Source: Thermoguttaceae bacterium
Lineage (GTDB): Bacteria > Planctomycetota > Planctomycetia > Pirellulales > Thermoguttaceae
NCBI GenBank assembly: GCA_050014815.1
Contig: JBEKCP010000001.1
Coordinates: forward strand, 1-47,675
Direction: 5' to 3'
Length of the DNA stretch: 47,675 bases
Positions 38,611 through 45,521 of the stretch are shown piece by piece. The notes below the pieces were generated by a model. It had not been told where the DNA came from and made no database searches. It saw only the letters and a list, made by a program, of their open reading frames with translations. The position numbers and the translations under genes are program-made. The first letter of the stretch is position 1. Each line of letters starts with the position of its first letter.

Positions 38611-39612
38611 TTACTTGGTCTTGCTGCGGGTCGGCCAGCCGCACGTCGGCAACATGCGGGCCATGTTCGCCCAGATCACCACGCGCTTGCCGGAGAGCTT
38701 GCCGAAGTGTTCGGGCGGGATCGTATTCGAGCCGAAGGCCAGCGGCATGTTGATGTGCAGGCCGATGTGCGCCGGCATGTGTGCCGAGCGGGGCGGCAAG
38801 TTCATCATCAGGGCGCTGTCGCCGGTGATCAAGATGGGGGAATTACCCGCGTCGGCGTAGCGCCCGCCCGTCCTCGCATCGAGCACCACGAGCAACTGAT
38901 CCGGCTTGTCGCGGCGATACTCCGGCTTGGTCGAGTAGCGTTTCTCTTCGGCCATCGCCTTCTTCACGAAATCGTAACGCAGCAGCCGCCCGGCAATCTG
39001 CTCGCCCGCGATCTGCGCAGCGAGATTGTTCCAGTGGCTGTCCCGGTCGTAGTACAGCGGCTTGTCCTCGTTCCGCTTGCGGAACGCGTGGAACGCGGGG
39101 TACAAATCGACGCATTCCACGTCGTTCTCCAAGAGTTTCTTCATCAAGTGCTTGACGGCCGGCGCAACCATGCGATCGGCCGGGGCGGCGTCGGAAAGGT
39201 AATCGGGATAGATTTGCAGTTTGTCGGGCAGCGGTACGAAGATGAGGTCGATGCCTTCGGCCTTGAGCTTCTTGTGCGTGTCCAGGATGACGTCCACAGC
39301 CCGCTTCGACTGGCCTTCCAGCGTGTCGAGCATCAAGAGATTGACTTCCGCGCCCTGAAAGGCGAAGTTGCTCTTGGCCGGCCAGGGCCACTTCTCGGTG
39401 GCGAGGACTTTCCGAACGGCGTCGCGGTAGGGCTTGATCGAGTTGCCCCAGTTCTCGAAGCTGCCGCCGTGATCCTTGAGTTCCTGGTCGATGGCCGCCA
39501 GGGTCGCCTTCATGGCCTGCTCGCGAGAGACGGGGTCGGCGGGCGGCTCGCCCAGTGCCCGGCCGCCGATCAGGATCAGGGTCGCCAACGATAGTGCTTT
39601 GCTCATGTCCAC
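38611..39612 (-). CDS. secreted AlgJ/AlgX-like (SGNH-like O-acetyltransferase family) protein, paralogue 4
   Basis: The track ORF is 38611..39675. AAGGAG at 39621..39626 sits 8 nt from GTG 39612 (MDMSKALSLATLILIGG); ATG 39606 is the alternative. Motifs: IDLIFVPLPDKLQIYPDY, LYYDRDSHWNN (D-x-H-W) and ILITGDSALM (GDS). Confidence 0.75.
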   Translation of the reverse strand: MDMSKALSLATLILIGGRALGEPPADPVSREQAMKATLAAIDQELKDHGGSFENWGNSIKPYRDAVRKVLATEKWPWPAKSNFAFQGAEVNLLMLDTLEGQSKRAVDVILDTHKKLKAEGIDLIFVPLPDKLQIYPDYLSDAAPADRMVAPAVKHLMKKLLENDVECVDLYPAFHAFRKRNEDKPLYYDRDSHWNNLAAQIAGEQIAGRLLRYDFVKKAMAEEKRYSTKPEYRRDKPDQLLVVLDARTGGRYADAGNSPILITGDSALMMNLPPRSAHMPAHIGLHINMPLAFGSNTIPPEHFGKLSGKRVVIWANMARMLPTCGWPTRSKTK

Positions 39613-39671
39613 GGGTTTTGCTCCTTGATGGAAGAAGATTCGCGGTATCGCGGGGTGCTCCAAAAGAAACT

Positions 39672-41171
39672 TCACTTCGTACCCGCGCCGCCCTTGGGCG
39701 CGGCGTCTTCGCCGACCACGGACAAGTCCTTGGCGTCCAGGGCCGGTTGATCGGGCAACTCGGCCCAGTAATGCGGTTTGTCGATCTCCAGGTCGATATC
39801 CGGCAGCGCCTCGCTCTGGATCTTGCCGTACTTCGCCTGGACCTCGGCCCAGGACGTGAGCTTCACCGCGAGCCCATCCCCTTTGGCGGCCTTGGCGATC
39901 GGGAGAATAATTCGGTGCCGCATGGCCAGGATCCGCAGCACGCCGTCGCCCGTGCCGATCTTCTTGCCGCCGGCGTCCACGAGGTCGGTCACGTACAACC
40001 GCATGATGTAATGCGCGTAGGGCGCGTTCTTGGCGGGCGGGAGCCCGGCCATCGCGACCGTTGCCCGGGCCTCGATACGGGTGACCGTCGCGGCCGGCTT
40101 CCGGCCGGCAACTTCGGGAAGGCTGACTACCGGCCAGACCTGGTCCCGTGCCCTGGGAAACGACCGTTCAGTAAAGCTCCAGATTACCACGCGCCGCCCC
40201 GCGAGGAAACCCCGCTCCTTTTCGAGTTGGGCCATGGCGACGGGCATATCGGGACCGAGGCCCTCGGTTGCCAACAGCGTCAGCGGCAGGCCGACGTGGA
40301 AGGCCACCTGCGCCGTCAAGCCCGCCCCGCGATTGGCGTTGTACACGGCATGGCTGTCGCCCGTGAGCACGATGGGGGAATCAGGCGCATCCTGGCAGGG
40401 GCGGCCGCCGGCCTGTTCGAAGATCAGCCGCAACCGGTCGGCCTTCGGCCCGTCGGAACGCGATCCAGGCTTCGAAGCGTACGGATTCTTGGCCGATGCC
40501 TCTTGGACGAAGCCGTACCGCTTCAACCGCGAGGCAAGCTCCTGGGCGGCCAGTTGCACCGCCAGGTTCCGCCAGTGGCCGTCACGGTCGTAGTAAAGAT
40601 AAGGATCGTCCCCGTTCTGACGCCGATATTCACGATAGAGCGCGTGCAGATCGACCACCTCGATGTCGTTTTCCAGCAACCGGCGAACGAGATGTTTGGT
40701 CGAGATCTCGACAATCCGGTTTTCGGGCGCCTTTTCGGAAAAATAGTCCGGATAGATGGAAAGCTTGGAGGGGATCGGCATGACGATCAAGTCGATGCCC
40801 CGCGCCTTGAGCTGGCGGTCCCAATGCACGATGGCCTCGAAGGGGCGCCATGCGTCCAAGGTGTCGGCCATCAACAATTCCACGCTCTTGCCCTGGAAAC
40901 AAAGATTCCCTTTGGCCGGCCAGGGCCACTTGTATTCCTTGACGATCCGCTGCATGTCCTCGCGGAACGGTTTCATTTTTTCGGCCCAGGCTTCCCACGT
41001 GCCGCCCGCAGCCTTCAGCGTCTTGTCCACGCCGGCGAGCGTTTTGCGGATCGCCTCAGCCCGGTCGGCTTGCGCGGACTGCTCGGCCGCCTGAGACGCG
41101 GCCGCAACGGATGTCCAGGCCATGGCGACGAACCATCCCAACGTCAACGCGAAACGGCGGTTCTTGCACAT
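39672..41171 (-). CDS. secreted AlgJ/AlgX-like protein with an extra ~140-aa C-terminal module, paralogue 3
   Basis: ATG start with GAGAGGAA upstream. N-terminus MCKNRRFALTLGWFVAMAWTSVAAA. It is about 50% identical by eye to 38611..39612, e.g. KWPWPAKGNLCFQGKSVELLMADTL vs KWPWPAKSNFAFQGAEVNLLMLDTL. Motifs: LYYDRDGHWRN and VLTGDSHAVY. The C-terminal module (YAHYIMRLYVTDLVDAGGKKIG...LTSWAEVQAKYGKIQSEALPDIDLEIDKPHYWAE) resembles the C-terminus of 42308..44044. Confidence 0.8.
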   Translation of the reverse strand: MCKNRRFALTLGWFVAMAWTSVAAASQAAEQSAQADRAEAIRKTLAGVDKTLKAAGGTWEAWAEKMKPFREDMQRIVKEYKWPWPAKGNLCFQGKSVELLMADTLDAWRPFEAIVHWDRQLKARGIDLIVMPIPSKLSIYPDYFSEKAPENRIVEISTKHLVRRLLENDIEVVDLHALYREYRRQNGDDPYLYYDRDGHWRNLAVQLAAQELASRLKRYGFVQEASAKNPYASKPGSRSDGPKADRLRLIFEQAGGRPCQDAPDSPIVLTGDSHAVYNANRGAGLTAQVAFHVGLPLTLLATEGLGPDMPVAMAQLEKERGFLAGRRVVIWSFTERSFPRARDQVWPVVSLPEVAGRKPAATVTRIEARATVAMAGLPPAKNAPYAHYIMRLYVTDLVDAGGKKIGTGDGVLRILAMRHRIILPIAKAAKGDGLAVKLTSWAEVQAKYGKIQSEALPDIDLEIDKPHYWAELPDQPALDAKDLSVVGEDAAPKGGAGTK

Positions 41172-44044: not shown

Positions 44045-44045
44045 G

Positions 44046-45521
44046 CTAGAAGATGAAGTAAATGAAAGGGTTGTACTCCTGGGTCGCCAGGACCATGAGC
44101 GACAGGATCAAGAGGCCCACGCACAGGGACGCCCGGGGCAAGGTGAGCCGGCGGGTCCAGGTCCAGGTTTGAGGGCACGTCCAGACGACGATCGCCGCCA
44201 GCCCCAGCGAGAACACGTAGTAGGGCTGGTACAGCAATCCGCCGAGCAATGCGGCGCCGGACTGCGGCCGGCCCTGGCCGAACATGCTGCCCAGGTACGC
44301 GACGGCCGCCTCCAGGCTGCCGGCGCGAAAGAACACCCAGGCGATGCAGACCGTGAAGTACGTGATCGTCATCCGGACCAGTCCGGGCAGCCGGTGATAG
44401 AGGCTTTGCTTGCCTTGGGCCCGCTCGATGCCCAGCATGGCCCCGTGGATGGCGCCCCAGATGACGAAGGTCCAGGCGGCCCCGTGCCACAGCCCGCCCA
44501 GGAGCATCACGATCGCCAGGTTGGCATACGTCCGCGCCTCGCCCTTGCGGTTGCCACCCAGCGGGATGTACAGGTAGTCGCGGAGCCAGGTTGAAAGGGA
44601 AATGTGCCACCGCCGCCAGAACTCGGTAATCGACTGCGACCGGTAGGGGGAATCGAAGTTCTTGGCGAACAGGAACCCCAGCATCAGTCCCAGGCCGATG
44701 GCCATGTCGGAGTAGCCGCTGAAATCGAAATAGATCTGGAAGGAGTATCCGAACACGCCGACCCAAGAGTCCAGGGTCGTGACGGAACCCGCGTTGAAGG
44801 CCGTGTCGGCGATTTTGCCGCAGGGGTTGGCGATCAGGATCTTCTTGGCCATGCCCAGCGAGAAGAAGGCCATGCCGCGGGCGACTTTGTCCAGAGTGAC
44901 GACGCGGTTCTCCATCTGGTCGGCCAGGTAGGAGAACCGCAGGATCGGCCCGGCCACCAGGTGCGGACACATCGACACGAAGCACGAGAAGTCGATGAAG
45001 TTCCTCATTGCCTTGGCGTGGCCGCGGTAGACGTCGATGATGTAGCTGAGCGACTGGAAGGTATAGAAGCTGATGCCCAGCGGCAGGACCACGCGGAAGA
45101 GCGTGTCCCAATGCCAGCTCGTCATGCCCAGCGAGGCGACCAGGGTGTTGTAGCTGTCCACGCCGAAGTTGAAGTACTTGAAGAAGCCGAGCATCGTCAG
45201 GTTCGAGATCACCGAGAGCGCCACCGCCCAGCGCTGCGTGGCAGACCGCTCCGTACGAATGGGCAAGGGAACGATTTCCTTTCCCCAGGCCCGCCAGAAG
45301 TCCCAACTGTCCCAGGCCACGATCAGGCTCAGCAACCAGTCCACGAAGGTGGTGCCGAACATGAGGAAGATGAACTTGGGATTGGCCCACCCGTAGAAGA
45401 TGTAGCCCATCACCAAGAGCCACAGGTTCCTTGCGCGCTGCGGCGCCCAAAGCAGTGCGTAATAGACCAGCAGCAGCAGCGGCAGGTAGTAGTAGACGAA
45501 GATGTGGGAACTGAAAACCAT
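44046..45521 (-). CDS. MBOAT family O-acyltransferase (AlgI/DltB/PatA-like)
   Basis: 491 aa, ATG start, multi-pass hydrophobic. Motifs: [18 protein letters not shown]..., [35 protein letters not shown] and [31 protein letters not shown] (the conserved MBOAT His region). Confidence 0.93.
   Translation of the reverse strand: [491 protein letters not shown]

Follow-up and report, generated by a model that had tools for sequence, protein, structure and literature searches.

A widespread MBOAT-AlgJ/AlgX-like core and two additional ALGX paralogs in a putative glycan O-acylation gene row of a Thermoguttaceae bacterium

Introduction

Pairs of a membrane-bound O-acyltransferase (MBOAT) with an SGNH-like protein represent a general bacterial route to acylate extracytoplasmic polymers, for which a handful of acceptors are known so far, namely alginate, cellulose, peptidoglycan, secondary wall polysaccharide, and teichoic acids. 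The closest described systems are AlgI/AlgJ/AlgF/AlgX for alginate in Pseudomonas, PatA/PatB for peptidoglycan in Neisseria and Campylobacter, PatA1/PatB1 for the secondary cell wall polysaccharide of Bacillus, WssH/WssI and CcsH/CcsI for cellulose, and DltB/DltX/DltD for the D-alanylation of teichoic acid. Here we describe a related gene row in a Thermoguttaceae bacterium (contig JBEKCP010000001.1, positions 1-47675), the full 47,675 nt of which are referred to as the window. Five open reading frames (ORFs) lie in a row on its minus strand at 38611-45521, an MBOAT gene followed by four genes, P1, P2, P3, and P4, whose products resemble AlgJ and AlgX.

Neither the PatAB nor the Dlt operon is located with the genes that synthesize its polymer. 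In the alginate system, the two ALGX-type partners, AlgJ and AlgX, differ in their roles (PMC4148444). A 2025 study demonstrated that MBOATs with SGNH partners end in a conserved FxYxxF hexapeptide, and that PatA auto-acetylates the tyrosine of this motif from acetyl-CoA, the acetyl-Tyr peptide being the donor to the serine of the partner (PMC12148441). Based on the evidence presented below, we interpret the gene row as a core trio, MBOAT-P1-P2, accompanied by P3 and P4 as facultative add-ons, and assign this reading a probability of roughly 0.6. The core belongs to a large, uncharacterized, cross-phylum family that is usually encoded apart from a polymer synthase and, by analogy with the alginate proteins, is probably an AlgI/AlgJ/AlgX-type system O-acylating, and probably O-acetylating, an extracytoplasmic glycan. 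According to the comparative data, the five genes do not form a single unit in evolutionary terms.

Domain composition and catalytic motifs

The first product of the row matches the MBOAT family PF03062 (E=4e-32; 112 bits at a cut-off of 27) and the other four match the ALGX family PF16822 (cut-off, 26.5 bits): P1 with E=1e-29 and 104.5 bits, P2 with E=2e-32 and 113.6 bits, P3 with E=1e-17 and 64.8 bits, and P4 with E=4e-19 and 69.8 bits. Since they all exceed the curated cut-offs, the PF16822 scores of P1-P4 are far beyond chance. An earlier note on this DNA had described one MBOAT and four same-strand ORFs as a candidate O-acylation module and had suggested hmmscan as a check; these matches, together with the motifs and fold presented below, agree with its assignment of the putative module to the MBOAT and AlgJ/AlgX-like families.

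The MBOAT (44046-45521, 491 aa; this and all other features of the row are on the minus strand) is a predicted multi-pass membrane protein. Its catalytic His motif, RRWHISL, is encoded at 44595-44615, with WHISL at residues 305-309, and a WH..L-type motif was found in 67 of 68 MBOAT ortholog gene calls. The acyl-shuttle motif FIYFIF (FxYxxF; 44049-44066), which contains Tyr488, forms the very C-terminus of the protein (...NPFIYFIF), and F.Y..F is likewise the C-terminal end in 63/63 full-length MBOAT orthologs of the comparison loci. Because the MBOAT ends in FIYFIF, the system most likely operates in an AlgI/AlgJ/AlgX-like manner, from acetyl-CoA to the tyrosine, from there to the serine of a partner, and finally to a glycan.

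P1 (42308-44044, 578 aa) has a cytoplasmic N-terminal tail and a single transmembrane helix, identified by hydropathy at approximately residues 33-52 (43889-43948). It further has a helical juxtamembrane region and an ALGX domain (42734-43600), which contains the D-x-H motif TDTHW (43202-43216) and the Ser motif GDSF (42938-42949) and is followed by a C-terminal module of ~110 aa (42311-42652) without Pfam or PDB matches. The residues D278, H280, and S368 are invariant across 41 P1 homologs. P2 (41235-42311, 358 aa, or 356 aa in the source gene call, which starts at a Met two codons later) consists of the ALGX domain only, with TDVHF at 41766-41780 and GDSH at 41496-41507, and is predicted to be a secreted partner in an AlgX-like position. 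P3 (39672-41171, 499 aa) combines RDGHW (40572-40586) and GDSH (40350-40361) with a C-terminal module (39753-40097) homologous to that of P1. P4 (38611-39606, 331 aa counted from the ATG) is again an ALGX-only, predicted secreted protein, with RDSHW at 39031-39045, GDSA at 38812-38823, and 42% identity to P3; alternative GTG starts are located at 39612 and 39675, and the N-termini of its orthologs favor 39606/39612.

The D-x-H and G-D-S motifs previously quoted for all four paralogs are thus present, and they are invariant in a four-way alignment; within the P1 family and the P3/P4 family, the catalytic motifs are invariant or nearly so. As to the membrane anchor and signal peptides noted earlier, P1 has its one transmembrane helix and P2 a clear N-terminal hydrophobic segment, whereas the N-termini of P3 and P4 resemble signal peptides on inspection and stay under the hydropathy threshold, signal peptides having been judged from hydropathy and by eye.

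In comparison with PDB sequences, P2 matched AlgJ and AlgX with the D-x-H and Ser motifs aligned. The two motifs correspond to RTDTHW of AlgJ (the D190/H192 region) and to GTSH of AlgX (the catalytic Ser region), and the triad order predicted for P1-P4 is circularly permuted, in that D-x-H precedes the catalytic Ser. The structure prediction suggested for the four paralogs covers P1 and P3, and both models have the AlgJ/AlgX/PatB1 fold. For P1, the AlphaFold2 model (predicted local distance difference test [pLDDT] score, 85.9) gave AlgJ (4o8v) as the top Foldseek match in the PDB, with E=2e-16 and a target-normalized template-modeling score (TM-score) of 0.76-0.78, followed by AlgX (4knc/7ula), B. 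cereus PatB1 (5v8d), and the DHHW protein 4nzk, the last of which was matched by P1 and not by P3. The P3 model (pLDDT, 91.8) also had AlgJ 4o8v as its top match (E=4e-12; TM-score, 0.66), with AlgX 4knc/7ula and PatB1 5v8d again among the leading matches; both models matched little else.

Comparison with characterized systems

The candidate core shares with the Pseudomonas alginate system one MBOAT, a transmembrane-anchored ALGX-type protein, and a second periplasmic ALGX-type protein, as well as the circularly permuted triad and the C-terminal FxYxxF of the MBOAT (PMC12148441). The alginate proteins also gave the top structural matches, AlgJ with 4o8v and AlgX with 4knc/7ula. Since one MBOAT with two ALGX partners is the AlgI/AlgJ/AlgX pattern, the MBOAT-P1-P2 core follows a familiar plan, and what is unusual is confined to the extra paralogs P3 and P4. 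The identity of P1-P4 to AlgJ and AlgX is 14-22%. In contrast to the alginate system, the extra domain is carried by the anchored partner P1, rather than by the soluble AlgX, and it matches neither the AlgX C-terminal domain nor any PDB fold. Moreover, AlgF and the genes for alginate synthesis or export (alg8/44/K/E/G/L) are missing from the window. Because these families were not found by Pfam among the window genes and because the gaps within the row (<=65 nt) are too short to conceal a further gene, the row does not represent an alginate system, although databases use names such as "AlgJ".

P1-P4 are ALGX-type, in contrast to PatB, an SGNH protein of canonical order, which is not among the significant Foldseek matches of P1. 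The likeness to PatA/PatB lies in the acetyl-Tyr shuttle of the MBOAT and in the transmembrane-anchored extracytoplasmic partner with a Ser-His-Asp triad (PMC12148441). The PatA1/PatB1, WssH/WssI, and CcsH/CcsI systems also pair an MBOAT with an ALGX/DHHW-like partner, and P1 had significant structural matches to PatB1 (5v8d) and to the DHHW protein 4nzk. However, each of these systems has a single partner and a known acceptor, and neither the N-terminal helical region nor the C-terminal module is present in them. The Dlt system follows the same Tyr shuttle logic, and DltB is the nearest solved relative of the MBOAT (E=2e-30). A DltB identity was nevertheless rejected, since the protein scored 158 bits with TIGR04091 against an equivalog cut-off of 375 and the window has no DltA, DltC, DltD, or DltX neighbors; in addition, the MBOAT of our system carries the shuttle motif within its own chain. 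By its domains and motifs, the module belongs to the MBOAT-SGNH class, with partners of the ALGX family, and it is not a strict alginate, Dlt, or PatAB system.

Conservation of the MBOAT-P1(-P2) core

A scan with P1, restricted to one genome per species, yielded 80 loci; these and the further contexts discussed below are numbered with the prefix L. According to the labels of the metagenome-assembled genomes, the 80 loci span at least seven phyla, among them Planctomycetota, Verrucomicrobiota, Kiritimatiellota, Lentisphaerota, Desulfobacterota, Acidobacteriota, and Poribacteria. The presence of an adjacent MBOAT was counted by tblastn, which detected the gene in 14 loci in which ORF calling had overlooked it. 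An MBOAT with 53-71% identity is located directly upstream of the P1 ortholog in 77 of the 80 loci, and the remaining three contigs begin at P1. The window has the same organization, with the MBOAT directly upstream of a transmembrane-anchored ALGX protein bearing the C-terminal module. Orthologs of P2 were found directly downstream or divergently upstream in 37/80 loci. Natural P1-P2 fusions of 905-968 aa occur in several lineages (L019 and L033; proteins P0133, P0138, P0141, P0145, and P0150), and residues 623-968 of P0141 align end-to-end with P2 at 44% identity. The adjacency of MBOAT and P1, the recurrence of P2, and these fusions together mark MBOAT-P1(-P2) out as a unit that is conserved and functionally coupled.

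In the fusion proteins, a hydrophobic stretch separates the two halves. Homology searches, which scored 8,000 candidates each and thus provide lower bounds, revealed more than 2,100 homologs of P1 (E<1e-20) and at least 600 of P2 (E<1e-30), which the source databases name "AlgJ", "AlgX-related", or "hypothetical". A literature search specific to the MBOAT-P1 family in Planctomycetes retrieved nothing specific.

Additional genes accompany the core in some of its lineages. A secreted protein termed c2 precedes the MBOAT in 32/80 loci (e.g., L022, 6773-8365) and hence is not universal; the window has neither c2 nor a hexapeptide acetyltransferase upstream of its MBOAT, and tblastn detected no c2, Hexapep, or c5 homologs elsewhere in it. 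In about 15 Pirellulales/Thermoguttaceae loci (L003-L017, e.g., L006, 11671-12660), a gene with an FGE-sulfatase domain follows MBOAT-P1 instead of P2. This gene, c3, had been considered as a divergent P2 and was ruled out as such by its domain.

The earlier note started from the premise that such systems normally adjoin a polymer synthase and pointed out that the window has neither a synthase, an exporter, nor AlgF. The latter statement is correct, as Pfam scanning of the 20 large neighboring ORFs detected no glycosyltransferase, synthase, exporter, or AlgF-like protein. The premise itself does not apply to this family. Genes of glycosyltransferase family 2 (GT2) are present within 10 kb in only 6/80 loci, all from Syntrophales and Desulfobulbales, where the unit lies among genes for GT2 enzymes, epimerases, hexapeptide acetyltransferases, and outer-membrane efflux proteins (OEP/TolC family). 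A Pfam survey of 118 neighbors from 34 loci showed no consistent synthase or exporter, and therefore synteny does not reveal the acceptor. The lack of a nearby synthase is the norm for the MBOAT-P1 family, and the variety of contexts speaks for a polymer whose biosynthesis is encoded at another site of the genome.

Distribution of P3 and P4

The junction sizes in the row are as previously noted: 1 nt between MBOAT and P1, a 4-nt ATGA overlap (-4 nt) between P1 and P2, 63 nt between P2 and P3, and 65 nt between P3 and P4. The tight junctions are confined to the MBOAT-P1-P2 part. Gaps between unrelated same-strand genes of the window are typically 25-65 nt (e.g., 32, 37, 41, 42, 43, 44, 51, and 54 nt), and the minus strand carries about 25 of the 26 genes. 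Hence, the gaps of 63-65 nt preceding P3 and P4, once considered as a hint of an operon, are the same as the background and are no operon evidence, and same-strand adjacency is weak evidence of co-function.

The homologs of P3 comprise 31 proteins, a small Planctomycetota-only clade that is derived from a P1-like ancestor. Within this P3/P4 clade, P4 has its own orthologs (P0021, P0023, and P0024; 56-59% identity), one of which, P0023, is encoded alone and divergently from a GH78 rhamnosidase gene. No P3/P4-type gene was found in the 80 MBOAT-P1 loci, so that, of the five-gene order for which the earlier note had suggested a survey, MBOAT-P1(-P2) is the conserved part. In eight of nine other contexts, all eight independent of each other, members of the clade have no MBOAT within 8-10 kb; they are found next to GH78 rhamnosidase (L083 and L098), GH42 (L093), or sulfatase (L097) genes, and next to housekeeping genes elsewhere. 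Since P3 and P4 homologs are encoded alone elsewhere, their link to the MBOAT appears to be facultative. A row of four ALGX genes was absent from the other loci examined (80 loci and ~10 contexts), in line with the earlier impression that it is unusual, and a metagenome scan with P3 as a single protein returned one locus only.

The sole other occurrence of P2 followed by a P3 ortholog is in a relative with 73-80% identity (L090, 594-4371; also L089, L091, L092, and L095). On the available sequence upstream of P2, this relative has no MBOAT; its P1 is reduced to a 45-aa C-terminal remnant, its P3 ortholog is missing the first ~160 residues, and an extra P3-like gene is present upstream. The arrangement looks like the result of recombination or decay among paralogs, and the retention of P2 and P3-like genes suggests that such enzymes can persist without an adjacent MBOAT.

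Proteins of ~1000 aa akin to the product of window positions 7144-10305 (minus strand) recur beside or near P3-like ALGX genes on several planctomycete contigs (L083, 15695-18874; L093, 11424-14297; L089, 3341-6517). The window protein had no PDB sequence match and a weak DUF4962 match only. This recurrence could stem from a functional relationship, or the proteins may just belong to a large family of paralogs.

The C-terminal module shared by P1 and P3

The extra C-terminal module previously ascribed to P1 and P3 was confirmed by hhalign, which aligned the two ~110-aa regions with a probability of 99.7% (E=4e-26). The same module, of ~100-110 aa overall, was detected in two further protein types, c2 (hhalign probability, 94.6%) and c5b (93-98%). 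The latter has no Pfam match and adjoins a GDSL-family gene beside the MBOAT in Chthoniobacterales (e.g., L036, 5995-7245). Among 1.84 billion cluster representatives, 319, each standing for a cluster at 50% identity, carry the module, and nearly all of these have the P1 or the fused P1-P2 architecture. Because the module is otherwise almost confined to P1 architectures, P3 descends from the MBOAT-linked family, and it may still recognize the same polymer or complex.

The module has no Pfam match, and Foldseek searches with the whole models gave no significant PDB match beyond the catalytic domain. In its predicted secondary structure, three strands come first, followed by a short helix, one more strand, a second helix, and a final strand, an order that in the model is reminiscent of an oligonucleotide/oligosaccharide-binding (OB) fold. 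One could speculate further that the module is a new glycan-binding or docking domain marking a hitherto undescribed cross-phylum envelope-glycan acylation system, c2-MBOAT-P1-P2, expanded here by P3 and P4, in which one MBOAT would serve several terminal transferases for different positions or glycans, possibly including extracellular polymers; we consider this extended scenario rather improbable.

Proposed pathway and alternative interpretations

Taking the domain identities, motifs, fold, synteny, and fusions as established, we infer as follows that the acyl group is acetyl, in which order it is passed on, that a glycan accepts it, and what P3 and P4 contribute. The MBOAT would accept an acyl group, presumably acetyl, from cytoplasmic acyl-CoA and load it onto Tyr488 of its FIYFIF motif at the outer face of the membrane, as suggested by the motif and the PatA precedent. 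Anchored P1 would then receive the group on Ser368 of its Asp-His-Ser triad, as suggested by its anchoring, its adjacency to the MBOAT, and the analogy with AlgJ. Finally, either P1 directly or the soluble P2 would place the group on a hydroxyl of an envelope or secreted glycan, a step deduced from the division of labor between AlgJ and AlgX (PMC4148444) and from the P1-P2 fusions. P3 and P4, which appear catalytically intact by motif, would be extra, secreted terminal enzymes acting most likely on the same or a related glycan, and not obligate subunits.

Three observations weigh against the division into a core trio and facultative add-ons. In the closest clade, Pirellulales/Thermoguttaceae (52-57% identity), MBOAT-P1 has no P2 within 10 kb, and P2 is therefore not universally required. 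The P2-P3 adjacency recurs in the close relative (L090), and P3 bears the system-specific module. Hence, P3 and P4 could be true partners of the MBOAT, as the earlier note had proposed.

In that alternative, the five genes would encode a single machine in which one MBOAT feeds four SGNH-like partners, acting on several positions or acceptors or forming a longer relay. The genes are contiguous on one strand, all four triads appear intact by sequence, P3 has the same C-terminal module as P1, and the adjacency of P2 and P3 is kept in the 73-80% identical relative; in Pirellulales lacking P2 beside MBOAT-P1, the part of AlgX could fall to P3/P4-clade proteins encoded in trans. However, contiguity on one strand is shared by nearly every gene of the window, the gaps of 63-65 nt are background spacing, the P3/P4 homologs occur without an MBOAT in 8/9 other contexts, and 0/80 MBOAT-P1 loci have a gene of this type. 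We therefore regard a five-gene machine as doubtful. From the fourfold-partner reading, the AlgJ/AlgX-like core stands and the idea of a relay is compatible with the AlgJ-to-AlgX model (PMC4148444), whereas P3 and P4 are not part of the conserved unit. The four-paralog expansion appears confined to this lineage and, as a functional unit, half supported.

Alternatively, P3 and P4 might be secreted carbohydrate acetyl-esterases that function in glycan breakdown and merely adjoin MBOAT-P1-P2. To our knowledge, no ALGX-family member is a characterized physiological esterase, which counts against this possibility, as does the retention in P3 of a module otherwise found on MBOAT-linked proteins. On the other hand, AlgJ and AlgX act as acetylesterases in vitro (PMC4148444). 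Genes for secreted glycan-degrading enzymes and sugar oxidoreductases abound in the window, and the P3/P4 homologs adjoin the GH78, GH42, and sulfatase genes listed above and, recurrently, the ~1000-aa DUF4962-like proteins. These neighbor families are very large and paralogous in Planctomycetota, so that the adjacency may be due to chance, and an esterase role is, in our view, unlikely.

A peptidoglycan O-acetyltransferase, that is, a functional analog of PatA/PatB, would explain the lack of a consistently linked synthase and agrees with the distance from synthases at which most of the 80 loci encode the module, the C-terminal MBOAT motif shared with PatA, and the N-terminal transmembrane anchor of P1, as predicted for PatB; a peptidoglycan acceptor is possible but unsupported, and very improbable, given that P1 and P2 are of the circularly permuted ALGX type, that the Foldseek matches of P1 are AlgJ, AlgX, and PatB1, not PatB, that the Syntrophales/Desulfobulbales unit lies within GT2/epimerase/OEP-TolC loci typical of exopolysaccharide or O-antigen, and that no O-acetyl-peptidoglycan esterase gene was seen nearby.

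With respect to the preferred reading of a core trio with facultative P3 and P4, the core is an uncharacterized, widespread variant of a well-known kind of system, and the addition of P3/P4 is lineage-specific. The MBOAT-P1(-P2) family is large, is distributed over the Planctomycetota-Verrucomicrobiota-Chlamydiota (PVC) bacteria, Desulfobacterota, and Acidobacteriota, and is uniformly misnamed "AlgJ/AlgI". Identification of its acceptor would add an envelope modification in poorly studied phyla, correct the annotation, and give an unannotated domain a function. The four-paralog arrangement matters less, since it appears in one lineage and half of it is possibly a coincidental adjacency.

Genomic neighborhood

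A promoter and terminator scan inside the module gave nothing that exceeds the shuffle background, and a hairpin at 38522-38501 falls within the coding region of the next gene. Regulatory RNAs and tRNAs were also looked for in the window, and none were found. Pfam matches of the neighboring proteins include GH123-like, PQQ-type propeller, HZS-alpha-domain, GH5/GH42-like, and ExbD-like proteins, an alpha/beta hydrolase, FAD and GFO/IDH/MocA oxidoreductases, an aldo-keto reductase, and a xylose-isomerase-like TIM barrel.

Propeller proteins had been proposed on both flanks of the row. The downstream 909-aa protein indeed matches PQQ_2, whereas the upstream neighbor, a secreted 542-aa protein (45573-47201, minus strand; 51 nt before the MBOAT), has no Pfam match. 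This protein has a paralog in the window, an 821-aa protein (23747-26212, minus strand) also without a Pfam match, and relatives, again without a Pfam match, upstream of a P3/P4-like gene in L100 (2450-7985). As a candidate for a divergent c2, it was ruled out by hhalign (probability, 0.1%).

Two further genes of the minus strand are described here for their architecture. The 1165-aa GH123-like protein encoded at 1757-5254 is a tandem duplication, with two halves of ~570 aa each matching GH123_cat, and its gene is located in a stretch of lower GC content (0.54 versus ~0.65 elsewhere). The 871-aa protein encoded at 12182-14797 contains the hydrazine-synthase-alpha (HZS-alpha) middle domain PF18582, and its relatives, one of them fused to an FGE-sulfatase domain, are encoded near P3-like genes in L093 and L096.

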